IMG/VR virus record: IMGVR_UViG_3300019487_000010
Span: 1 to 44,817 of that record
Source of the DNA: a virus
Reading direction: 5' to 3' (one strand)
Length of the DNA stretch: 44,817 bases
Below are positions 24,068 through 37,166 of this stretch, piece by piece. The notes under the pieces are model-generated. The model saw only the letters and a list, made by a program, of their open reading frames with translations, ran no database searches and was not told where the DNA came from. The translations under genes were made by a program, and so were the position numbers. Position 1 is the stretch's first letter. Every line of letters starts with the position of its first letter.

Positions 24068-24511
<444 letters not shown>

Positions 24512-26014: not shown

Positions 26015-28015
26015 TCACGAGGCACCCCACCCACGAAGCTCAAGGGCGCGCGACGCCGCGAGCGCGGAGGCGAGCTCCGTTGCGAGCGCGACCGGGTCAT
26101 GCGTGAGCGGATGAGCCTTCACCTTGCGAGCGTGACCCCACGACCGTCCGCTCACCTTCATGTCAACGATGAGCGGGAGCCGCAGGCCCCAGTCCTCCGG
26201 GTCCTCGAGGAGTCGCCAGAGCTCAAGCATGAAGGGCAGGAGCTCGCTCTCCTTCACGGAGAAGAGGAGCGAGTCATGCACCATGATGAGGAGTTTCGCT
26301 CCCCACCGCGGCTCGAGCTCACGGAGCACCCGCAGAACCTTCACCTTGAAGATGTCCGCGGCTCCGCCTTGGATCACGTAGTTCAGCGCCTTGTGGGAGC
26401 CCTGCTCGGGGTTGAACCGGTACACCCGCCCAAGGACGTTACGAACCCACCCGCGTCGCTTGACCAGCCGCTTGACCTTCGTTTGCAGGGCTCGGATCGA
26501 AGGGAACTCCCGGTGGTAGCTGTCGTAGATCTGCTGAGCCAACAGGTCCGTGGTCCGAGTGTCCAGCTTCTCAGCGCGCTTCGCGGTCTGAGTGCCCGCG
26601 CCCATCAGGAGCGTACGCATGGCGGCCTTCATCTCACCGGCTCCGCCCTGAGCCTCCTTCAGCTTCAGGGTCGCCGCGAGGTTCTTGAGGAGCTTGGCGC
26701 GACCCATCCCGTAGACGAACGAGAAGTTCAGCTGCTTCGCGAACTGGCGATCCACCCCGAGCCGGGTAGCCAAGGACTGGTGGAAGTCCGTGAACGGGTT
26801 CTCGAGGAACGCGGCCAACACGCGGGCGTCGTTCGCGTAGTGCCCGAACAGCCGGTACTCGATCTGGCTGTAGTCCACGGACAGGAGCACCTCGTCCGCC
26901 TCATGAGGCTCTACGAACGCCTCCGCCTCCACGGGTACGTTAAACAGTGAGGGATTCCGGCAGGACATGCGTCCGGTCGCGGCTCCCGCTTGAGCGATCC
27001 CCGGGTGCAGAAGCTCCTGCTCATCCACCCGTTTGAGCCAGCCCTCCACGTAGGTGGCGAGGAAGTGTTGGTTCTTGCTGTACTCCGAGAGGAGCTTTCC
27101 CACGGGATGGTTGAGCGTCTCGAGCGCCATCGAGTCCCACTGAGGCTTCCCGCTCTTCGTGAAGGCGAGGGGATGGAAGCCCAGCTGACCCATCAACAGC
27201 TGACTCACGTCCTCGTCAGCCCCAGGGTCACACATGAAGTCAGCGACCTGGTTGACCTCCTCCCAGAGCTGGACCTGCCGCGCCAACAGCCCGTGCTGAG
27301 CGCGCTTGATCGCCTCCACCTTGACCGGAAAGCCCCGCCGCTCCACCCGCAAAAGCTCCCGGGTAAGCGGCACCTCCACCTCGGACCAGAGGCGGCGACT
27401 CAGGTCCGGAAGCCTCTCCTCAGCGGCGCGGAAACAGTCCGCCGTGACTAGAGCGTCGCTCTCCGCGTACTCACCGAGGAGCTCTACGGGGGCCTTCGCG
27501 TAGTCCTTGGTCTTCGCACGGCGGCGCCACGGGGTGAGCAGGTCCTTCCCCCGCTTTCGGTGCTCCGCGTTGAAGACCGCTGCGAGGTAGTGCAGCTGAT
27601 ACGAGGGCAGATCGTTGTGGGTCAGTCGCGAGATCACCCAGAGGTCCTCGATGGAGGCTGCGCTCAGCCAGTCAACCCCGTCTACGTACGCGAAGTGGGC
27701 GTCAAACTTCACGTTATGGTTGATCACCCGTCGGTTCCGCACTAGGTCGCTCAGCCAGCGGGTGGCGCCCTCAAGCTCCACGTTGTCACCATCGTAGTGC
27801 CGCAGGGGCACATAGGTCGACCATGCCCCGTCGAGGGTAGCCACGCCCCAACTCACCGCTCGATCCCCACAGAAGGGCTGGTCCCCGTAGCGATCATCGA
27901 CAAACCCCGTGGTCTCCACGTCGAGCACCACGGGCACGCCGGGAGGAGGAAGCTCCTTCAACTCGCCCACCAGAGCCTCCCCTCCTCCACAGCCTCGTTG
28001 AGGCGAGCCACCCAC
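26015..28015 (-). CDS. polA: Family A DNA polymerase with 3'-5' exonuclease domain
   Basis: Exo I VLDVETTG, Exo II NHNVKFDAHF, Exo III YAESDALV; Pol motif A LLSVDYSQIEYRL, motif B RQFAKQLNFSFVYGMG, motif C IMVHDSLLF. The true start may be GTG 27970 or TTG 27961 (TTGA overlap). Confidence 0.9.
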   Translation of the reverse strand: MGGSPQRGCGGGEALVGELKELPPPGVPVVLDVETTGFVDDRYGDQPFCGDRAVSWGVATLDGAWSTYVPLRHYDGDNVELEGATRWLSDLVRNRRVINHNVKFDAHFAYVDGVDWLSAASIEDLWVISRLTHNDLPSYQLHYLAAVFNAEHRKRGKDLLTPWRRRAKTKDYAKAPVELLGEYAESDALVTADCFRAAEERLPDLSRRLWSEVEVPLTRELLRVERRGFPVKVEAIKRAQHGLLARQVQLWEEVNQVADFMCDPGADEDVSQLLMGQLGFHPLAFTKSGKPQWDSMALETLNHPVGKLLSEYSKNQHFLATYVEGWLKRVDEQELLHPGIAQAGAATGRMSCRNPSLFNVPVEAEAFVEPHEADEVLLSVDYSQIEYRLFGHYANDARVLAAFLENPFTDFHQSLATRLGVDRQFAKQLNFSFVYGMGRAKLLKNLAATLKLKEAQGGAGEMKAAMRTLLMGAGTQTAKRAEKLDTRTTDLLAQQIYDSYHREFPSIRALQTKVKRLVKRRGWVRNVLGRVYRFNPEQGSHKALNYVIQGGAADIFKVKVLRVLRELEPRWGAKLLIMVHDSLLFSVKESELLPFMLELWRLLEDPEDWGLRLPLIVDMKVSGRSWGHARKVKAHPLTHDPVALATELASALAASRALELRGWGAS

Positions 28016-28833
28016 GGAGCTCGTTCGTGAAAGTGAAAACGCCTCAAGACCTGCGGGTGAGGAAAGCTCGCTGGCTGGAAGCCAAGCTCACGCAGACGCG
28101 CAAGAGCTACCTTCCCCAGGGCTACCACGGAGATGGGCCTCAGGTACCGGACCAGCTCTTCAGTCAACGGTTCTCCGTGACGACCATACGCGTTCACCAG
28201 GTGAACGTCCTTAGGGGTGAGCCCTGCTCGAGCGAGCAGGTCGTAGAGGTAGGGGCCGCTCCCGACGGGTCGTCGCCCCTGGAAGGGAAAGCTGAACTGA
28301 GCGACCCTCTTGGGGTTCACTCGCTCAGCGACCAGCAGGACCCGCGGTGAGAGCGACCCCCAGCCTGCTCCGCCCAGCTTCTGGTAACCCACGAGGGTAC
28401 GCACCGCCTTGTCGTGCCTAGCGAAGAGCAGTCCGCTGAGGTCTCGCTTGACCCACTCCGGGTCCGGCTTCGCGGGCAGCCGCATGATGAACGCCGGCTC
28501 TAGCTCCGGCGCTCGCTCGAGCGCCCGTTCATACCGCCTCTCTTCACCGAGGAGGAGGAGGGTGCTGGCGGTCAACGCCGCCGCGAGTCCGAGGTGCCAA
28601 CGCTCCACCACGGAGAGCGCGAGGTTGCGCCCCGCGAGGGGAGCCTCTGCCATGTCGGTGAGCGCCCACCGATCCACCACGGTCGCCCACAGCGCTTGCC
28701 CCAGCCCCGCCCAGTACTGACCGTCGGGCTCCAGCACCCGCACCGCGGAGACCGCCGCCCCGAGCGGGGTGGTGAGCGCTCGCGCGAGCGTGGTCTTGCC
28801 CACCCCGTTGGGTCCCTCGATGAAGATGGCCAC
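27958..28833 (-). CDS. Fusion protein: N-terminal P-loop deoxynucleotide-kinase-like domain + C-terminal uracil-DNA-glycosylase-fold domain with a non-canonical active-site motif
   Basis: N-terminal domain: IFIEGPNGVGKTT and VVDRWALTD (dNK/Tmk-like). C-terminal domain: VLLVAERVNPKRV..FSFPFQGRRPVGSGPYLYDLLARAGL...VHLVNAY...FPHPQ follows the family-4 UDG layout, but AERVN replaces GE(A/G)PG. Confidence 0.65.
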   Translation of the reverse strand: MAIFIEGPNGVGKTTLARALTTPLGAAVSAVRVLEPDGQYWAGLGQALWATVVDRWALTDMAEAPLAGRNLALSVVERWHLGLAAALTASTLLLLGEERRYERALERAPELEPAFIMRLPAKPDPEWVKRDLSGLLFARHDKAVRTLVGYQKLGGAGWGSLSPRVLLVAERVNPKRVAQFSFPFQGRRPVGSGPYLYDLLARAGLTPKDVHLVNAYGRHGEPLTEELVRYLRPISVVALGKVALARLRELGFQPASFPHPQVLRRFHFHERAPWVARLNEAVEEGRLWWAS

Positions 28834-28835
28834 CG

Positions 28836-29711
28836 CTACTCCTCCAGGTACAGGTAAGCAGGAATGTGAGCGGGTATGTAGGCGACTCGACCGTGCACCG
28901 GGGACAGGTGCAGGCTCGCGCCACAGAGATCGTAGACCGTTCCGGTGTACGTGGACTCGACCTGCGGGCAGGACTCGGTGGCCTGACAGTGGACCGGTGG
29001 CACGAACATGTTCGAGGCCTCACCCTTCACCGCGATCTTCTTCCACCAGCACCCGGGGTTGCATCCCTCAGGGAGGAGCGGGGCCAGCCATGGAGACGCC
29101 ACGAGGAGGGCTTCACGGAGCTTCACCGTGAAGACCAACTGCTCGTGGGACTGGGTCTGCGGGCACCGCCTCGAACGATAGAGGTTGAGCAGAGCCGCGA
29201 GGTTCAGGTGCACGTAGATGAAGGAGCTAGCCCCGCTGGGCAGGGAAAACCGGGCCTCGTAGGGCGTTACCTGACGAGAGTCCAGCAGATCAGCGTAGAG
29301 CGTCTTCTGGAGGAGCGCGAAGTGCACGTACCGTCGGAGCAAGGGCCCGCGCAAGACCCGGGGTACTAGCACATCGTCGTCTCGGCAGTCACGATCGCCC
29401 GTGCACTGCTGGCTGAAGGTCACTCCAACGCGCGCGCGAACCAACTGGTGGGTAAAGAACCTCGAGACACCGGTCAGGAGCAAGGTCCAGTGGAGCTCCT
29501 CCTGCCGGTTCCAGAGCGCGCCCTTCATAAGCTCCGGCGACCACTCCTGCTCCCGGGGAGCGTCGAGGTGGCATGCGCCTACCGCCTGCGCGGCTGCTCG
29601 AAGGTCCTCCTCCGAGGGGGCCTTCAAGACCTTCACGGTGCAAGCCTCGGTCAGGTCCAAGAACCTCGTACGCGGCATGGCATCCCAGTGCCAGTCAATC
29701 TTCCCGGTCAT
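28836..29711 (-). CDS. thyX: Divergent flavin-dependent thymidylate synthase (ThyX)-like protein
   Basis: SRFFTHQLVRARVGVTFSQQCTGD aligns with the ThyX motif sR...HQlvRHR..SfSQQSqRY, but with RHR->RAR, S->C and R->G. I chose the ATG at 29711, which shares a base with the MazG-like stop. Confidence 0.65.
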   Translation of the reverse strand: MTGKIDWHWDAMPRTRFLDLTEACTVKVLKAPSEEDLRAAAQAVGACHLDAPREQEWSPELMKGALWNRQEELHWTLLLTGVSRFFTHQLVRARVGVTFSQQCTGDRDCRDDDVLVPRVLRGPLLRRYVHFALLQKTLYADLLDSRQVTPYEARFSLPSGASSFIYVHLNLAALLNLYRSRRCPQTQSHEQLVFTVKLREALLVASPWLAPLLPEGCNPGCWWKKIAVKGEASNMFVPPVHCQATESCPQVESTYTGTVYDLCGASLHLSPVHGRVAYIPAHIPAYLYLEE

Positions 29712-30034
29712 CAGAACCTCCTGTCTGTCTTGGTGACCGCAGGCTTCTGCTCGTTGTGCCGGAGCTTCGCCAGTACCGCCTTCTCGATACGCCACCGCTC
29801 TCGCCCCGCGAGGTTCAGCAGAGCGAGCACCACGTCCGCAGCCTCCTCCTCGATCTGAAGGAAGCCTGGCAGCCTGGTGCTGGGGCGAGCCTCGCGGGCT
29901 CGGTGTTCCATGAACACCTCAGACACCTCGCTGTGCACCAACGCTATCTGGCTCGCGAGCGTAGACTGCTCCCACCAACCCTTCGCGATGGCACAGGCGA
30001 AGGCCCTGTCCGCCAAGTCCGTCAGCTGCCCCAT
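29711..30034 (-). CDS. MazG-like nucleoside triphosphate pyrophosphohydrolase
   Basis: LVHSEVSEVFME ... IEEEAADVVLALLNLA gives the EvsE ... EE.aDv pattern in a ~107-aa all-helical protein. Confidence 0.65.
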   Translation of the reverse strand: MGQLTDLADRAFACAIAKGWWEQSTLASQIALVHSEVSEVFMEHRAREARPSTRLPGFLQIEEEAADVVLALLNLAGRERWRIEKAVLAKLRHNEQKPAVTKTDRRF

Positions 30035-30039
30035 CTACC

Positions 30040-30597
30040 TCACAGCCTCCCCCTGAGCTCAGTGTACCGCCGGATGAACGCCTCCCGCGCCGCGTCCCGT
30101 GGCCACGCCGGCCACACTGGCATGGTCGGGCCCTGGACTGGCTGGTCCCTCGTGAGGCTCCAACCGAGCTCCCCGAAGTACGCTACAGTCTCCTGCCGAC
30201 AGAGCTCACGGTCAGCCGACTTGACCGCAGCCCAATGAGCACACGGAAAGTCCTCCCCCTCTGCGACCTGTTCCAGGAGCCAGTCCTCGAGGGCGATGAG
30301 CTCCTTTCCCGCGAGGTGTCGAATTGGAGCCACCAAGTCCCCGATGATCATCTCTCCCACGTCGTGGAGCAGGCCCGCCAGCGCCAGGTGAGGCGCCACC
30401 ATGTAGCTAACCAACACCGAGTGCTGAGCCACGGTGTAGGGGATGTAGCCGTTGAAACGGGTCTGACCAGCAAGGCTGGTAGCAGCTTGGGTCAACCGAG
30501 CCCAGGTGGTCCATCTGAAGTCCCGCACCACCAAGTACTCCACCGGCTCCGTAACGAGGAGCTTGAGCTCCCTGAACCGCTCCGGAATGACGCTCAC
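30040..30597 (-). CDS. HD-domain phosphohydrolase (YfbR-type 5'-deoxynucleotidase-like)
   Basis: YTVAQHSVLVSYMV ... LLHDVGEMIIGDLVAPI (H ... HD ... D). I chose the GTG at 30597, which forms a GTGA overlap with the upstream stop. Confidence 0.65.
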   Translation of the reverse strand: MSVIPERFRELKLLVTEPVEYLVVRDFRWTTWARLTQAATSLAGQTRFNGYIPYTVAQHSVLVSYMVAPHLALAGLLHDVGEMIIGDLVAPIRHLAGKELIALEDWLLEQVAEGEDFPCAHWAAVKSADRELCRQETVAYFGELGWSLTRDQPVQGPTMPVWPAWPRDAAREAFIRRYTELRGRL

Positions 30598-31151
30598 ACG
30601 ATCCTCCCCTGCCACGGGCTCTTGGTGAGCGGAGAGCCGTCCCTGAGCCACTTGTCGAGCTCCGCTGCTCCCACGAGGTAGTCGTCGAACCCCTCCGCCA
30701 GCATCAGGTTCACCGCCGCCGGGTAGTCCGAGTAGAACGCAAGGAGGTGCGGCTTACCCGCTATCTGGCGCCTCGCGTACGCGTAGCCGAGCTCCCAGAC
30801 CGTGCCCGTGTCCGGGAGAGCCAACGGCGGCGAGAAGGTTGGCACCTGCACAGCACCGGAGAGGAAGGACCGCGTGAGCAACGCAGCGGGCTCGGGCATC
30901 GTCACCACCCGGAGGCTCTGCCGGGGCGGGAGAGCGTAGGTGAGCACCGCCAGGACCAGGTCCGCGTCAGCCACGTGCTGGCAGTTCAGCTCGAACGCCC
31001 TCTGCCGCTCGAGCGCGCTACCGTCCGGGGCGACAAAACACTCCCGACGAGGGCTGAACACCTGGTGGTGCGGGTCGAGCGCGTTCTCGAGCTCGTTGAT
31101 CAGCCCCACCTGGACGGGATTGAAGAACGGGCCTGCCAAGTAGAACCTCAT
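30594..31151 (-). CDS. Nucleoside 2-deoxyribosyltransferase-like protein
   Basis: The N-terminal MRFYLAGPFFNP signature (YlAGPfF), a later WELGYAYA and the size are consistent with the NDT/Rcl fold. Confidence 0.6.
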   Translation of the reverse strand: MRFYLAGPFFNPVQVGLINELENALDPHHQVFSPRRECFVAPDGSALERQRAFELNCQHVADADLVLAVLTYALPPRQSLRVVTMPEPAALLTRSFLSGAVQVPTFSPPLALPDTGTVWELGYAYARRQIAGKPHLLAFYSDYPAAVNLMLAEGFDDYLVGAAELDKWLRDGSPLTKSPWQGRIV

Positions 31152-31744
31152 AGCTGTTGAATCCTCCGCTGATGTTTTTCCGTCAGAAAATGAGGAGCGG
31201 TTAGATAGAGCCCCTCCATCGAGATGAGCTCAGGCGCTCGATCCTCCATCTCGAGCCACTCATACCAGAGTGCGTGCCACGCTTGACGCTGAGCGAGCAC
31301 CCGCGTCTCAGTTGCCCACGACAACTGACGGTGTCTCCGCGCCACCGTCGGTGTCAGCACCTGAGAGGTTTCCCTGGTGATCCAGGAGCGCCTCTCCCTC
31401 CGCTCCTGCACCACCTCCACGGGCTCTCTCAGCATGATCTCGGTCACGTCTCCAAGAGACCGCATGAATTCGAGAGCCTTCGGGTGGTGAAAGCCTGGTG
31501 GACGCACATAGAGCCACTTGGCAGCCGTCACGACAGGTGCGTAGAACGTCGTCTCCCGCTCCCACCCCGGAAGGAACAGGAGATGCCCTTCCGCGGAGAG
31601 GACTCGCCCGAGGAACCCGTGCCCGGTCTCTGACACGACGAGGTTGGTCAAAAACCACGCGGTGGGAGCCACCGCACGCCTCACGTTGAGCTCGAGGGTG
31701 CTCTTGCCCGACCCAGGTGGCCCGCTAACCACGACGTTACGCAT
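31148..31744 (-). CDS. P-loop NTPase / nucleotide kinase-like protein
   Basis: Walker A VVVSGPPGSGKSTL at the N-terminus; ~198 aa. Confidence 0.55.
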   Translation of the reverse strand: MRNVVVSGPPGSGKSTLELNVRRAVAPTAWFLTNLVVSETGHGFLGRVLSAEGHLLFLPGWERETTFYAPVVTAAKWLYVRPPGFHHPKALEFMRSLGDVTEIMLREPVEVVQERRERRSWITRETSQVLTPTVARRHRQLSWATETRVLAQRQAWHALWYEWLEMEDRAPELISMEGLYLTAPHFLTEKHQRRIQQL

Positions 31745-32426
31745 GCCCCCAAAAGTCCCCCGCCCTGTTGCCCTTCAAGGTCCGCCCCGGCCTCGGGCAC
31801 TTCATCGCTCGCTCCTCGGCCTTCTCCACCACCACGGTGTGGTTTAGCTGCCCGCTCCGCTGAGGAGCGGCACGCTGCCGCAAGCCCCGCCTGCGGAGCT
31901 CATCGATGACCTGCTCCAACACCCAGCACGAGCGGCGAGCGCCACCCGCGTACAACTGGCTCCCGTAGAGGTACCGCTGAAGCGTGACCCGATCCTGGAC
32001 GCTTCCCCCAGGGTCGTTGTTGCGAGCGAGCAAGAGCTCAAGGTCCCGAAAGGTAAGGGTGAACCGCCCGCCCAGCTCCAGTACCCTGGCGACCTCGTTC
32101 AAGAAGAACTGCGCTTGGCTCGGCGAGAGAAACTCAAGGGTAAGTTTCACGCGTACCTCGGTCACGTGCTCCTCTCTGAAAGGAAGCCCCAACCGGAGGT
32201 CCCACGGAAGCACCCGTGGGTACTCTCGGAGGTCCAGGCCCACCCAACCAGCGTACTTCGCTCTCATGAGGTCTTGACCACACCCGGGGTACACCCGCTG
32301 GCCTGGCGGGAGGGTCATGCAATCTTGGTACACCTTCCGCAACGTCTCCGCAAAGCCCCCGTCCAACGATCGCTGCTCGAGGTTCCGCCACGCCAACATG
32401 AGCTCCCACCGCTCCTCGAGGTTCAT
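31737..32426 (-). CDS. Class I SAM-dependent methyltransferase
   Basis: Motif I RVYPGCGQD, WVGLDL, LPFREEHVTEV, and post-motif VLELGGRFTLTF. Confidence 0.6.
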   Translation of the reverse strand: MNLEERWELMLAWRNLEQRSLDGGFAETLRKVYQDCMTLPPGQRVYPGCGQDLMRAKYAGWVGLDLREYPRVLPWDLRLGLPFREEHVTEVRVKLTLEFLSPSQAQFFLNEVARVLELGGRFTLTFRDLELLLARNNDPGGSVQDRVTLQRYLYGSQLYAGGARRSCWVLEQVIDELRRRGLRQRAAPQRSGQLNHTVVVEKAEERAMKCPRPGRTLKGNRAGDFWGHA

Positions 32427-35263
32427 AGCTCAGACTCCTTCGCCGCGAGATCCTGAGGACTCTCATCAGGCACGTCGGTCAGCCCTCTGAGCAACTCGAT
32501 GAACGCGGAGCTCTTTACGTACCCGTGAGCTCGCTTACGGATGGCCCCGTGTCTGACGAGCGCTCCCACGAACTGGCGAGCCTCATCCAAGTCCATCTGG
32601 GTCCAGTCCAGAACGTCCGCTATCTTGAAGACCGTGGCCTCGAGCAAGAGGTCCCGCAGGCTCGCTGCGAACGGGGTGGCCAAGATCAACTTCTTGACGT
32701 ACTCTGGCTCACGAAGCACCTCGCTCTCGATGAACGCCTTGCTGTACGCCGCATACCCATGAGCCTTAGCGGAGTATACCTCATCGAGGTACTCGTGCAC
32801 CGCCGCCACGTGACACGGTCGCACCACGAGGGTGACCCCGTCCTCGGTTGAGAAGGTCAACGCCGCCATGGCAGCGGCCAACCGGGCCAGCTTCAGCCGC
32901 TGATCCGCAGGCTCCACGAGCGGGATCCGGCTCGAGTACCGGGTGCCCATGGTCTGGGCCGCTGTCAAGACCGCCTCGGTAGTGCCCTCCCCCATAGCCA
33001 CCTGGTGCTCCGTCCGAGACCACGCCCAGAGGACCAGCGCACGACAGAGGTCCGCCGTGTAACGGTGCTCCGCTCGAGGCCGCGCGGAGTCACGTAGGTG
33101 AATGACCTCTGGCGGAACATCCCCTGACGCGACCACCACCGCAAAGTCCAATCGTCGCACGTCCTCAAGGTTCCCGATCAGCTGACGCACCGCCTCCACC
33201 CCGAAGTTGTAGCTGGCGATCTGCCAATCCCGCCTGGGGTTGCTCACCCAGAGCAGCCGAGTACGAGCGTGGGTCTGCACCTTCTCGATCTTCGCCAAGG
33301 CCGCGATCCCGCTGGACCGCATGTCCGTCAGCTGAGCTATCACCTCCTCGCTCAGGCCCTTCACCTCCTCGAGGACCACGAGTCTCCGGTCATTCAGCGG
33401 GATCACGCCCCAGGACACGAACCACCGCTTACCGGTCTCCTGAAGGCCGCCCTTTAGCCCCGCCGCGCTGGCGCCCTTAGCGTCAACCTTCTCCCCGAGC
33501 CCGTAGTGCTGCATGAGGCAAGCGATGGTCTCGCTCTTCCCCTGTCCGGAGTCGCCCAAGATCAGAGCTTCGACCCAGCCCTTGCGAAGCCTTCCCTGAA
33601 AGGGGAGGTAACAGACGCTGTGGTAGGTCAGGTCCACCGCCATGTGCATGGCGGTGCGCTGGTAGATCCGCGTCACGTTGGTGCTAAGGTCCGAGTACCG
33701 CCGCTCGAGAGCCCGCTGAACACTCTTCTTGGTCCAGTGTTTGGGTCGCACCAGCGTGGTCAGGGCCGCTTGAAGCTCCTCAGAGAGGACAAACGTGGAA
33801 AGCGCGTCCCGCGTGGGCTCCATCTGGTAGGCGAGCAGGGTAGCGTACTGGGTACGGGGCTCCGGCACCACCTTCGCGGTCACCTTGTACGGGGTGTTGG
33901 TCTCTGTGCCGTGCCCGACCCTAAACGCGCGAACCACGACGTGGTCCGCTTCGTTGGCAGTCAGCTTCAGCTGCGGAATCAGCCGAAGCTCCTCGATGTT
34001 CTGGTTCTTCACCACCTTGAACCGGCACACGTCGCACCGCCGCGGTATGCTCGCGAGCCGCTTTAGAGGGTACTCCAGACGATCCGTGGGGCACCCGCAG
34101 AGCTCCAACACCCGGGCGCTGGTAGCGTCCACGGTGATGACCGCAGCGTCAGCGGGCAGGTTCATGACCGGGCACACCGCACAATAAGGCGTGTCTCGGC
34201 TGCACAGCACCTGCACCTCGGCGGGCACGATGAACGGAGCGGTGTCCTTAGCTGAGACCACCGTGTCCACCACGACGTGCTTGTAGGCCAACCTCGCGTG
34301 GCTGGCCTCGGAGAGGCCCACTGCGATAGGCGTAACGTTGGCCTCTGGCTCGGTATCCTTGTCGGAGAGGATCGGGGGCTCCCAGGCCGGAGCCTCCTCG
34401 AGAACCCTTTGAAAGTCCTCCACTGAGTGGTTCAACGCGATCAAGAAGTCGGTGACGTCCCCGTGCGGGTACTCCGCTGGGTCGATGGGCAGGAGCACGT
34501 TATGCACCCGCTTGGCGTAGCGGAAGAGCTCGCGACACCGCTTCGCGGCGTTCACCCTTCCTGCCTTGTCAACGTCATAGACCACGTGAACGACCTTGCC
34601 CTTGAAGAGGGGCGTCCACGAAGACGACCACGTTCCCGCTCCCCCGGTAACAGACAGAGCGTTGAGCCCCTGTTGGCGCAGGAGCAACGCCTTCAGCTCA
34701 CCCTCAGCGAGGATGACCTCGTTCTCACGAAGAGCCTCGATCGGGTACAGGCGAGGCCGGGTCTTCCCGCTCTCCAGCCTTGCGTTCACCACCTTGCGAG
34801 CCTTGTCCGTGGGAGACCACAGTCTCACCGCGACGATCGAGCCTTCGTGGTCAAAGACCGGGATCGAGATCCGCCCCGAGGTAGTCCCAAGCAGGTACTC
34901 CTTGGCCGTCGCGACCGTGATCCCCTTCCGCTCACGAAGCTCCTGCAAGAGAGGCCGGTGACGGAGTAGGGTGTTGTGCCACTGGCGGACCTCCTTGGGG
35001 TCAAAGGTGGCTTTGTGTCCGCCTTGCTCGAGGTGCTTCTTGACAACCGCCTGACTCTCACCCACGTGAGCAGCCAGGAGCTTGACCAGCGGCCCGCTCT
35101 CCCCACACGCGTGACAGGCAAACGCCCCTGAGTCCGTGTTGACGGAGCAGGACGGAGTCCAATCATCGTGGAAGGGACAGCAGACCAGCACCCACCCGTT
35201 TGCCTCTCGGCCGAGGTCAAACGTGTAGTTTCGTAGCACCTGGACTACGTCGAGCTCGCTCAT
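32423..35263 (-). CDS. DnaG-type primase (CHC2 zinc finger + TOPRIM) fused to an MCM-like AAA+ helicase
   Basis: Zinc finger CPFHDDWTPSCSV...ACHACG. TOPRIM VILAEGELKAL and VVYDVDKAG. MCM-like ILGDSGQGKS, KGASAAGLKGGL, LVVLEEVKGL, GIAALAKIEKVQTHARTRLLWVSNP, VRRLDFAVVV, plus an upstream Cys4 cluster. Confidence 0.8.
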   Translation of the reverse strand: MSELDVVQVLRNYTFDLGREANGWVLVCCPFHDDWTPSCSVNTDSGAFACHACGESGPLVKLLAAHVGESQAVVKKHLEQGGHKATFDPKEVRQWHNTLLRHRPLLQELRERKGITVATAKEYLLGTTSGRISIPVFDHEGSIVAVRLWSPTDKARKVVNARLESGKTRPRLYPIEALRENEVILAEGELKALLLRQQGLNALSVTGGAGTWSSSWTPLFKGKVVHVVYDVDKAGRVNAAKRCRELFRYAKRVHNVLLPIDPAEYPHGDVTDFLIALNHSVEDFQRVLEEAPAWEPPILSDKDTEPEANVTPIAVGLSEASHARLAYKHVVVDTVVSAKDTAPFIVPAEVQVLCSRDTPYCAVCPVMNLPADAAVITVDATSARVLELCGCPTDRLEYPLKRLASIPRRCDVCRFKVVKNQNIEELRLIPQLKLTANEADHVVVRAFRVGHGTETNTPYKVTAKVVPEPRTQYATLLAYQMEPTRDALSTFVLSEELQAALTTLVRPKHWTKKSVQRALERRYSDLSTNVTRIYQRTAMHMAVDLTYHSVCYLPFQGRLRKGWVEALILGDSGQGKSETIACLMQHYGLGEKVDAKGASAAGLKGGLQETGKRWFVSWGVIPLNDRRLVVLEEVKGLSEEVIAQLTDMRSSGIAALAKIEKVQTHARTRLLWVSNPRRDWQIASYNFGVEAVRQLIGNLEDVRRLDFAVVVASGDVPPEVIHLRDSARPRAEHRYTADLCRALVLWAWSRTEHQVAMGEGTTEAVLTAAQTMGTRYSSRIPLVEPADQRLKLARLAAAMAALTFSTEDGVTLVVRPCHVAAVHEYLDEVYSAKAHGYAAYSKAFIESEVLREPEYVKKLILATPFAASLRDLLLEATVFKIADVLDWTQMDLDEARQFVGALVRHGAIRKRAHGYVKSSAFIELLRGLTDVPDESPQDLAAKESEL

Positions 35264-35544: not shown

Positions 35545-35864
35545 GTAGGAACCTTGTAGGTATAGATCGCGAGCTCAAACCCGCTGAGAAGACTCGCGTG
35601 AGTTAGTGCCCCCGCGACCTTGTTCGGGTCTGCCACCACGTGGAGCCACCGAACCCACTCCTCTTCCGTCCAGCGGACGCCGCGAAGAGCCTTACGAGCC
35701 CCCTCGCGGGTGTGACCCTCGAGCTTCACCTGCGCCCAGCGGTAGAGGTCCCGTGCCTTCGAGAGGTGCTCATGGCACACCCACGTGCACGGGGCGCCTC
35801 CCTCCGACCAGGACCAAGGGGCGGGCGCTCCACAGCCCGCCCCTTGGCAGAGCTTAGAGCTCAC
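35541..35864 (-). CDS. Hypothetical protein (107 aa)
   Basis: Coupled ORF with a GTG start. Confidence 0.45.
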   Translation of the reverse strand: MSSKLCQGAGCGAPAPWSWSEGGAPCTWVCHEHLSKARDLYRWAQVKLEGHTREGARKALRGVRWTEEEWVRWLHVVADPNKVAGALTHASLLSGFELAIYTYKVPT

Positions 35865-36660
35865 CGGTCTCGTCCTTCCCCGCCTCCGCCTCGTCGAGGG
35901 CGTCCGCTTCCTCAGCCGGCGGCGGCTGGATTCGATCCTTCGCCTCCCGCAGGCCCTGGTGAGCCTTCTGGTAGGCGAGGAAGGTCGGCTGGTCGGTCAC
36001 CCAAGCGGGCTTCGCGTTCCGCAGGGAGAACGTCATGTACTTGTGACGCTCCGGGCCCTTGCTCTCGGTGAGAGTGGTGCTCACCACGTACCGGCCAGCG
36101 TACAGCGGGAACTTGCCCCGGAAGGTCGCCAGGCTGAGGAGCATCTTGCCCACGCGGTAGCCCGTGCGGGAGAACCCCAGCACGTACAGCTGGGTGAGCG
36201 GCGTGTCCTTCAGGTGGACCACGAAGTTCAGGTACGCGGTGACCGCGCGCACCTCCTTGGTGCCCTCGAGCCGACGCTCATCAGCGAGGCAACGCCGTGC
36301 GAGGGACCCGTGCGAATCACGTGAGCTCTCCTTGATCCCGAGCCCGGTGTCCTTGGGGTGCCACTCGATCCACTCCCGGTAGAACAACAGCGGGGTGAAC
36401 TCCTGCTCCTCGTCCCGGGTGAACACGACCTGGTTCGAGAGCGAATCCAACACGTCACCGCTGTCGGCGAGCCGGAGCTCCTCGACCTGCTTGGACTTCG
36501 CTTGCATGAGGATGAGCCGGGAGAAGATCAGGTCCTGTCCCGTGATCTCCTCGCGACCCTCCTCCGAGGGAGCGATGAAAGCCGGCGCTGCGTCCGTCTC
36601 CACTGGAGCCACGGGCAGGGCCTTGACCTTCTCGAGCCCTGTCTTCTCTTTCTTGCCCAT
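35854..36660 (-). CDS. Possible ssDNA-binding/annealing protein with an acidic C-terminal tail (268 aa)
   Basis: I chose the ATG at 36660, preceded by GAGGAGG. The acidic tail is PPPAEEADALDEAEAGKDETGEL, and the gene lies in the replication/recombination block. The functional call is weak. Confidence 0.35.
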   Translation of the reverse strand: MGKKEKTGLEKVKALPVAPVETDAAPAFIAPSEEGREEITGQDLIFSRLILMQAKSKQVEELRLADSGDVLDSLSNQVVFTRDEEQEFTPLLFYREWIEWHPKDTGLGIKESSRDSHGSLARRCLADERRLEGTKEVRAVTAYLNFVVHLKDTPLTQLYVLGFSRTGYRVGKMLLSLATFRGKFPLYAGRYVVSTTLTESKGPERHKYMTFSLRNAKPAWVTDQPTFLAYQKAHQGLREAKDRIQPPPAEEADALDEAEAGKDETGEL

Positions 36661-37166
36661 CACGGCCTCCTCGCTTTGGGGAGTCGCCTGACCTTCAGGC
36701 AGAGCTCCGAGTGCGGCTTCAGGTACCTTGGCGGGTTCTTTCCCCGCTCCTTCAGCTCTCGACAGACCGCTGCCAAGGAACGCATGTTCGGGACCAAGAC
36801 CTGCGGGTGTCTCCGCACCAACCACGCTCGAAACTTGACGTACTCCGGGCTGGCCTTTCCTGGCCCCGCCCAGTACTCGCGGCTGTCGATGGCGACGACG
36901 CACCCAGCGACCTTCAAGTCGAGAACGTCGCTCTCGAGCATGAGCATAGCCAGGGGCTCCTCGACCGCTCGCTGAGCGGCTCCCAGCATAGCTCCGAAGG
37001 CTTTCGCCCGCTGTCTGAGCAGGTGAAGCCTCGCTGCGACACTCGCCGCTTGCGCTATCTCCATGCCCCGCGTGAGCTCACCCGCGGGACCTACGAGGTC
37101 CGCGAGGTGGGCCGCGAGCTCCACGAACTGGACGCCTAACACGTCTAGGCGCTGAGCGAGACTCAT
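36660..37166 (-). CDS. Hypothetical helical protein (168 aa)
   Basis: I chose the ATG at 37166 (ATGA overlap). It is adjacent to the putative SSB. Confidence 0.45.
   Translation of the reverse strand: MSLAQRLDVLGVQFVELAAHLADLVGPAGELTRGMEIAQAASVAARLHLLRQRAKAFGAMLGAAQRAVEEPLAMLMLESDVLDLKVAGCVVAIDSREYWAGPGKASPEYVKFRAWLVRRHPQVLVPNMRSLAAVCRELKERGKNPPRYLKPHSELCLKVRRLPKARRP

Follow-up and report, generated by a model that had tools for sequence, protein, structure and literature searches.

The virus record IMGVR_UViG_3300019487_000010, a complete record of 44,817 bp flanked by direct terminal repeats (the window), encodes a protein (P0001) in which a P-loop kinase domain is joined to a small domain of the uracil-DNA glycosylase (UDG) fold, here termed the mini-UDG. 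On balance, this protein appears to be a single two-domain enzyme that combines a kinase for the 5-substituted pyrimidine deoxynucleoside monophosphate (dNMP) of its neighbour with a probably active uracil-type glycosylase. A full-text literature search turned up no description of a kinase-UDG fusion. The gene lies on the minus strand, which holds most of the long open reading frames (ORFs) of the window, including all of the genes treated here, and is divided as follows.

27958..28833, minus strand: fusion gene, 291 aa plus stop
28414..28833, minus strand: P-loop kinase domain of the YorR/thymidylate-kinase class, residues 1-140
27961..28377, minus strand: C-terminal mini-UDG domain, residues 153-291

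The evidence for this two-domain organization is far beyond chance. An alignment of 56 family sequences (A1) was used both as a profile against the PDB and as input for AlphaFold2 (AF2), and the profile, the model and Foldseek together confirm the fusion of a kinase-like domain to a UDG-fold domain that a preliminary description had proposed from the sequence. The A1 profile matches the SPbeta kinase YorR (E 2.8e-21, positions 2-164) and thymidylate kinases (TMPKs; E ~1e-7), as well as the Thermotoga maritima family-4 UDG TM0511 (E 3.7e-10), the T. maritima and T. thermophilus family-4 UDGs as a group at E ~1e-9, and UdgX (E 3e-7). The AF2 model of the fusion protein (pLDDT 93.3, pTM 0.91) gives the same picture in structural comparisons (VIA): residues 1-162 superimpose on YorR (2axp) with Z 14.2 and a root-mean-square deviation of 2.8 over 141 residues, and the kinase half on TMPKs with Z ~10, while residues 141-289 match the family-4 UDG 1l9g with Z 13.3 and the UDG half also matches the family-5 structure 2d3y (Z 11.5), UdgX (Z 11.1) and the active UDG domain of the phiLo PolA (Z 10.0, 24% identity). 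Foldseek returned the same two assignments, so that the structural check suggested in the preliminary description came out UDG-like for the C-terminal half and kinase-like for the N-terminal half. By both profile and structure, the C-terminal domain is a member of the UDG superfamily (the clan of PF03167).

Searched alone, the window's protein has P-loop matches in Pfam and a UDG match (E 1.3e-3, profile positions 2-138 of 141) that, at 19.3 bits, falls below the PF03167 gathering score of 24.3. Its scores for the Pfam Thymidylate_kin family (PF02223; 12.9 bits, cut-off 27) and TIGR00041 (12.7 bits, cut-off 83) are also low, its match to PHROG 761 ('thymidylate kinase') is confined to the P-loop region, and the C-terminal half alone has no match in PHROGs or NCBIfam. 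Among the 56 members of A1, 26 match the Pfam UDG family and 24 match Thymidylate_kin. The motifs picked out in the preliminary description could all be located (GPNGVGKTT at residues 7-15, DRW at 54-56, VLLVAE at 165-170, PF at 183-184, VHLVNAY at 210-216 and HPQ at 259-261), and the features that define the kinase half are listed here.

28789..28815, minus strand: P-loop GPNGVGKTT, residues 7-15, from the sequence and the family alignment
28666..28674, minus strand: DRW motif, residues 54-56, from the family alignment
28645..28647, minus strand: Glu63, a Tyr in most relatives, from the family alignment

Residue conservation was counted in 151 family representatives, 139 of which were aligned for the kinase positions. 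The kinase half carries the signature of the TMPK/deoxynucleoside kinase class, namely an E-G-x4-GK(T/S) P-loop, a DR motif, a subsequent Arg and an Arg-rich LID-like segment; the E6-G7 pair preceding the P-loop is typical of these kinases. Residues E6, G7, G12, K13, T14, D54 and R55 are present in the window's protein and conserved across the family, with D54 and R55 each kept in ~131 of the 139 aligned members. Compared with thymidylate kinases proper, the P-loop with E-G, the DR(Y/F/H/W) motif and the basic LID are present, and the curated score threshold and the conserved Tyr are lacking; compared with YorR, the similarity extends over the full length in both sequence and structure. The window's protein is, judging from the alignment, an atypical copy within its family. 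Position 63, which lies nine residues past the DR Asp and by this spacing corresponds to the deoxyribose-side Tyr of TMPKs, is Tyr in 127 of 139 aligned relatives and Glu in this protein only, out of 151. The family's P-loop Asp9 is replaced by Asn, Gly169 of the UDG half by Ala, and a helix of ~20 residues after the LID has been deleted (A1 alignment), leaving the kinase shorter than its relatives.

The active-site equivalents of the mini-UDG were placed by hidden Markov model (HMM) alignment to TM0511 and, for the motifs, by counts across the family.

28312..28332, minus strand: VAERVNP, residues 168-174, equivalent of motif A
28282..28287, minus strand: P183-F184, aligned with the family-4 PF, which holds the base-stacking Phe
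28192..28194, minus strand: Asn214, which pairs in the alignment with UdgX N91 and with the Asn by which family-4 UDGs recognise uracil (PMC10359453)
28036..28059, minus strand: HPQVLRRF, residues 259-266, equivalent of motif B

Roles have been assigned to several residues in family 4 and UdgX: the motif-A Glu activates water, the Asn and His bind uracil, and an Arg of the intercalation loop contacts the DNA backbone (PMC10359453). Each of these has a counterpart here: E170 pairs with the Glu of GEAPG, P183-F184 with PF, N214 with the Asn after strand 2, H259 with the His of HPS, and R265 with the Arg six residues past that His. The counterparts are almost invariant among the 151 representatives (E/D170 in 147, F184 in 135, N214 in 150, H259 in 151, R265 in 149 and F266 in 148). 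Motif A has the family consensus VG(E/D)(R/Q)xNP, with Gly at position 169 in 141 of 151 and Ala in seven, the window's VAERVNP among them. Motif B has Gln in place of the family-4 Ser in 122 of 151, and its spacing (His, with Arg at H+6) equals the HPSxxxR of family 4 and UdgX. The protein contains no Cys and A1 has no conserved Cys column, and therefore the mini-UDG has no 4Fe-4S cluster; at ~135 aa it is also ~60 residues shorter than family-4 UDGs (~190-200 aa). Of the family-4 hallmarks, then, the His and Arg of motif B, HPS(S/A)xxR, are present, and the GE(A/G)PG form of motif A and the four 4Fe-4S cysteines are absent. The KRRIH R-loop of the covalent UDG UdgX, whose nucleophilic His lies ~18 residues past the Asn, is likewise absent, the loop after N214 being short, variable and without a conserved His. 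A cytosine-DNA glycosylase was also considered and dropped, since the base-specifying residue is Asn rather than Asp in 150 of 151 members. The mini-UDG is thus a separate, reduced branch of the UDG superfamily, closest to family 4 and with an intact-looking pocket.

The preliminary description had noted that motif A reads AERVN instead of GE(A/G)PG, which is correct as to the non-canonical sequence, although the Glu of the motif is still there as E170. Its further suggestion that the fold probably cannot excise uracil is not supported, given the retention of E170, PF, N214, H259 and R265 and their conservation among the representatives. From these residues, the mini-UDG half is probably not dead, and because the full set of pocket and DNA-contact residues has been retained, a working, base-flipping glycosylase is most likely.

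The same fusion was found in many other phages, as the preliminary description had proposed to look for. An exhaustive HMMER search at E<=1e-3 returned 523 clusters, mostly of 290-350 aa and most of them matching both halves, and this phage family is common in uncultured phages. Atlas neighbours of the fusion protein are 96-100% viral, and BFVD holds full-length structural matches, including phage G gp315. Database labels of family members read 'thymidylate kinase' or 'hypothetical'; gp29 of phage AXL3 and gp315 of phage G are both fusion members annotated 'thymidylate kinase'. The halves also occur separately, the kinase half as Bacillus phage 'thymidylate kinases' and the mini-UDG as RsoM2USA_394, P0013 and P0018. 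The contexts of these stand-alone mini-UDGs are uninformative (P0013 and P0018 are on ~1 kb contigs, and the RsoM2USA copy is among unannotated genes). The existence of each half as a separate protein argues for two independent activities rather than one composite active site.

In the window, the fusion gene is packed tightly between a gene for a pyrimidine-modifying type of enzyme and the gene for the DNA polymerase.

28836..29795, minus strand: upstream neighbour, long divergent ThyX-fold enzyme, 319 aa (Pfam Thy1, E 1.2e-15; alignment and PDB profile search)
26015..27970, minus strand: downstream neighbour polA, family-A DNA polymerase with 3'-5' exonuclease domain (family profile; probable start by start-site inspection)

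The GTG start of the fusion gene lies 1 nt past the stop of the thyX-like gene, with the Shine-Dalgarno sequence GGAGGAG 4 nt upstream of it. The overlap with the polymerase gene reported in the preliminary description exists at the level of ORFs, where it amounts to 58 nt (27958-28015) because the longest polA ORF begins at 28015; the real start of polA is probably the GTG at 27970, favoured because the Shine-Dalgarno sequence GGAGGAGGGGAGG precedes it, and the overlap is then 13 nt. A TTG overlapping the TGA stop of the fusion gene is another polA start that is likelier than 28015. PolA of the window has 651-666 aa and, in a family profile scan, no UDG domain.

This arrangement bears on whether the mini-UDG could be a non-catalytic handle that binds DNA or the polymerase and so tethers the kinase, and hence the supply of deoxynucleoside triphosphates, to the replisome. 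The fusion gene abuts and overlaps polA, PolA is near in most related loci, and other phage PolA enzymes carry a UDG domain in the same polypeptide, the N4-like ones having lost their catalytic residues (PMC13697223). The reduction of the mini-UDG, its lack of an Fe-S cluster and the Ala for Gly in motif A would suit such a role, which can be compared with that of vaccinia D4 as a subunit for processivity and with the UDG domain that has become inactive in N4-like PolA. However, E/D170, F184, N214 and H259 have no obvious scaffolding role and have nonetheless been kept at 90-100% in more than 150 diverged representatives, a pattern of pocket conservation that marks a catalytic or ligand-binding site, and the mini-UDG is also found without a kinase to tether; the handle is therefore considered unlikely. 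It is more doubtful still that the pocket binds a free pyrimidine nucleotide (dUMP or a modified dNMP), whether to regulate the kinase, to capture its substrate or to act for it as a nucleotide N-glycosidase. The UdgX crystal structure 6ajp has dUMP in its pocket, and it would fit that the domain is joined to a nucleotide kinase and encoded within a nucleotide-metabolism operon, but the elements that contact DNA are kept: the motif-B loop has R265 and F266 in nearly all members, and the spacing of R265 from the His equals that of UdgX R184, which binds the DNA backbone.

Further information comes from the gene neighbourhoods of eleven loci (the window, four isolated phages and six metagenomic contigs). 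All eleven contain a pyrimidine C5-modifying enzyme near the fusion gene, adjacent in most but separated from it by a few genes in phage G, and usually also an NTP (nucleoside triphosphate) pyrophosphatase of the MazG/PRA-PH type, a dCMP deaminase, a methyltransferase and PolA. The ThyA-like neighbours (7/7) read RS(N/S)D..G..YD, with Asp where ThyA has its uracil-specifying Asn, a position at which the dUMP hydroxymethylase M6 gp58 retains Asn. For AXL3 gp28, the best solved relative is the CMP hydroxymethylase MilA (E 8e-21), and the phage G locus includes an alpha-glucosyltransferase. Of 37 restriction enzymes, 35 failed to cut AXL3 DNA, which was cleaved at AATT and TTAA only (PMC7504290). 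By analogy, the loci of the ThyA type look like modified-cytosine pathways in the style of T4. The T4 gp1 kinase is required for modified dCMP and acts on both hydroxymethyl-dCMP (hm-dCMP) and dTMP.

Several details of these loci may be added. The 'thymidylate synthase' genes beside the fusion in Stenotrophomonas phage AXL3 (L007) and Bacillus phage G (L013) encode Asp at the equivalent of ThyA Asn177, and the products are, from this residue, probably deoxycytidylate-modifying enzymes; AXL3 carries a separate ThyX besides its ThyA-like gene. In three loci (L002, L017 and L018), the fusion and the cytosine-type ThyA homologue are accompanied by a gene resembling PF00145 cytosine-C5 DNA methylases, and in L002 a radical-SAM/SPASM gene lies between this methylase-like gene, the ThyA homologue and the fusion.

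The neighbourhoods also bear on the analogy, made in the preliminary description, with the DNA-acting kinase that activates 5-hydroxymethyldeoxyuridine in thymidine-hypermodifying phages. That the UDG fold flips a 5-hydroxymethyl-pyrimidine for the P-loop domain to phosphorylate on DNA, as 5-hydroxymethyluracil DNA kinase (5-HMUDK) does, is very improbable despite the joining of a P-loop kinase to a base-flipping fold, the fixed arrangement of domains suggested by the pTM of 0.91, a cluster rich in nucleotide-modifying genes and the radical-SAM enzyme of one related locus, because the family profile aligns with the proven 5-HMUDK M6 gp54 over 35 P-loop columns only (hhalign) and with nucleotide kinases over the whole domain (~160 positions), the E-G...DR...R signature of nucleoside-monophosphate kinases is retained, the partner of 5-HMUDK is a transferase of the helix-hairpin-helix rather than the UDG fold (PMC5889632, PMC8989533), the ThyA-like neighbours are of the cytosine type and not dUMP hydroxymethylases, and both halves exist as stand-alone proteins.

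The lineage of the window (with L008, L009 and L016) differs in its partner enzyme, a ThyX-fold protein of 304-319 aa instead of a ThyA-like one, encoded at the following positions.

Window, 28836-29795, minus strand: long ThyX-fold protein with altered conserved ThyX motif
L008, 219-1172: the same
L009, 7105-8034: the same
L016, 5518-6432: the same

Across the alignment, the motif of this protein is strictly conserved as GVSRxFTHQLVR[AQ]RxGVTFxQQCTGD, in which RHR has changed to R(A/Q)R, the motif Ser to an invariant Cys and the next Arg to Gly-Asp, and there are additional conserved Cys residues in a C-terminal extension. The protein may catalyse a reaction other than dTMP synthesis. A search of the PDB with the single thyX-like protein sequence returned nothing useful. 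The window shows that the kinase-UDG module can partner a ThyX-fold rather than a ThyA-fold enzyme, and its own contribution is this ThyX-partnered lineage together with a copy of the fusion whose kinase half is eroded.

The two-domain enzyme favoured here would work as follows. The Thy-type enzyme encoded just upstream would make a 5-substituted pyrimidine dNMP, which the kinase half, a putative (deoxy)nucleoside-monophosphate kinase, would take to the diphosphate, as T4 gp1 does with hm-dCMP and dTMP. The mini-UDG half would flip and remove a uracil-like base from replicating phage DNA, the likely substrates being uracil or a similar 4-oxo-pyrimidine (U, or the deamination product of a modified cytosine). 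Between them, the halves would provide the 'right' pyrimidine and clear away the 'wrong' one. Translational coupling places both in a single run with the polymerase. A more speculative and clearly less probable extension is that the mini-UDG founds a phage-specific, Fe-S-free UDG family. Its substrate would then be a base other than plain uracil and relevant only to cytosine-replaced genomes, such as an unmodified pyrimidine incorporated by mistake, or T or 5-hydroxymethyluracil that faces G after a modified cytosine has been deaminated. Through its fusion to the kinase, such a domain would link the supply of precursors physically to policing within the DNA at the replication fork.

Several points weigh against the combined kinase and glycosylase. 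The non-canonical motif A, the domain shorter by ~60 residues and the missing Fe-S region could mean that DNA binding is weakened or specificity changed, and the Gly of motif A is Ala in the window's copy. This copy also has Glu for the near-invariant Tyr63, Asn for D9 and no post-LID helix, and such an eroded kinase half may be weaker or re-specified. The neighbouring ThyX-fold enzyme has an altered motif, so that the substrate in this phage may differ from the one deduced for loci of the ThyA type. Finally, the activity of fusion members is a prediction from sequence and model, and the combined reading supplies no reason for the fusion of the two halves.

Further genes of the same operon form a translationally coupled run upstream of thyX (29711-32426, minus strand), in which all but the second P-loop protein were assigned by family profile scan.

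29711-30034, minus strand: MazG-like protein
30040-30651, minus strand: YfbR-type HD protein
30594-31151, minus strand: nucleoside 2-deoxyribosyltransferase-like protein
31148-31744, minus strand: second P-loop protein, 198 aa, recognized by its P-loop only
31737-32426, minus strand: S-adenosylmethionine (SAM) methyltransferase-like protein

Taken without the second P-loop protein, the set suggests that the nucleotide pool is edited for a non-canonical base. For the second P-loop protein, Pfam, PHROGs and the PDB gave no family match outside the P-loop. It shows no detectable relation to the kinase of the fusion, and its BLASTP match to M6 gp54 covers 17 P-loop residues only. Elsewhere on the minus strand, a 147-aa protein (24068-24511) combines a Lys/Ala/Pro-rich N-terminus (KKTPAAKKTPAAK) with an extremely acidic Asp/Glu tail (DEDEDEDEDEDADA); the AXL3 replication module is reported to encode a Glu-rich protein (PMC7504290). 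The gene at 32423-35263 encodes a 946-aa protein in which a primase with a CHC2 zinc finger is fused to an MCM-like P-loop helicase region, and that at 35854-36903 a Pam3_Gp34-like protein, both on the minus strand; since this pair recurs in the related contigs L009 and L016, it marks a lineage of ~45 kb phages.

The fusion has consequences beyond this one genome, as hundreds of phage lineages, including therapy candidates (e.g., Stenotrophomonas phage AXL3), carry the gene under the incomplete label 'thymidylate kinase'. The hidden UDG-type half flags carrier phages as likely bearers of pyrimidine modifications, and these have a bearing on sequencing, on restriction analysis and on how host defences are evaded. 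To the UDG superfamily, the mini-UDG adds a compact branch free of a metal cluster, which could serve as a reagent if its specificity is new. If active as predicted, the fusion would represent a third route by which phages tie uracil-type surveillance to replication, besides trans-encoded and PolA-fused UDGs.

Among known systems, 5-HMUDK (M6 gp54, ViI gp67) resembles the fusion in being a phage P-loop kinase in a base-modification cluster, and differs in its company: it co-occurs with an Asn-type dUMP hydroxymethylase, whereas the neighbours of the fusion are of the Asp type or ThyX-like, and its partner aGPT-Pplase/AADT has a helix-hairpin-helix fold (PMC5889632, PMC8989533). In tblastn searches with two fusion family members, no record of ViI, M6, SP10 or PhiW-14 was matched, and among the 18 replication-module ORFs scanned (the structural-gene half lay outside the scan), there was no match to families of the aGPT-Pplase/AADT or dUMP-hydroxymethylase type. 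SPbeta YorR (2axp/3kb2) and the TMPKs share with the kinase half the E-G P-loop, the DR motif, the following Arg and the Arg-rich LID-like segment; unlike the fusion, they stand alone, and the window's copy lacks their conserved Tyr and one helix.

The T4 pathway for modified-cytosine precursors consists of the dCMP hydroxymethylase gp42, the dNMP kinase gp1, the dCTPase gp56 and the cd deaminase, and the fusion loci of related phages parallel it with a cytosine-type ThyA homologue, a kinase, an NTP pyrophosphatase and a dCMP deaminase. The fusion loci depart from T4 in that the kinase, in the comparisons made, shows no homology to gp1, a UDG-like partner is present, and the window has a ThyX-fold enzyme in place of a gp42-like one. 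Family-4 UDGs (TM0511, 1l9g/1vk2; T. thermophilus UDGa, 1ui0) share with the mini-UDG the fold, the motif-A Glu, PF, the Asn and the His-Pro-x with its Arg, whereas the mini-UDG differs from them in its length of ~135 aa, the absence of 4Fe-4S, the G(E/D)(R/Q)xNP form of motif A, HPQ for HPS and its fusion to a kinase. The closest published parallel to the fusion is provided by the UDG domains fused to phage PolA, of which the SPO1-like and SP15-like are active and the N4-like inactive (PMC13697223). In these enzymes (e.g., phiLo, 9qhs), a UDG-fold module is likewise attached genetically to the PolA replication module in phages with modified pyrimidines; here, however, the UDG fold forms the C-terminus of the upstream kinase gene rather than the N-terminus of PolA.

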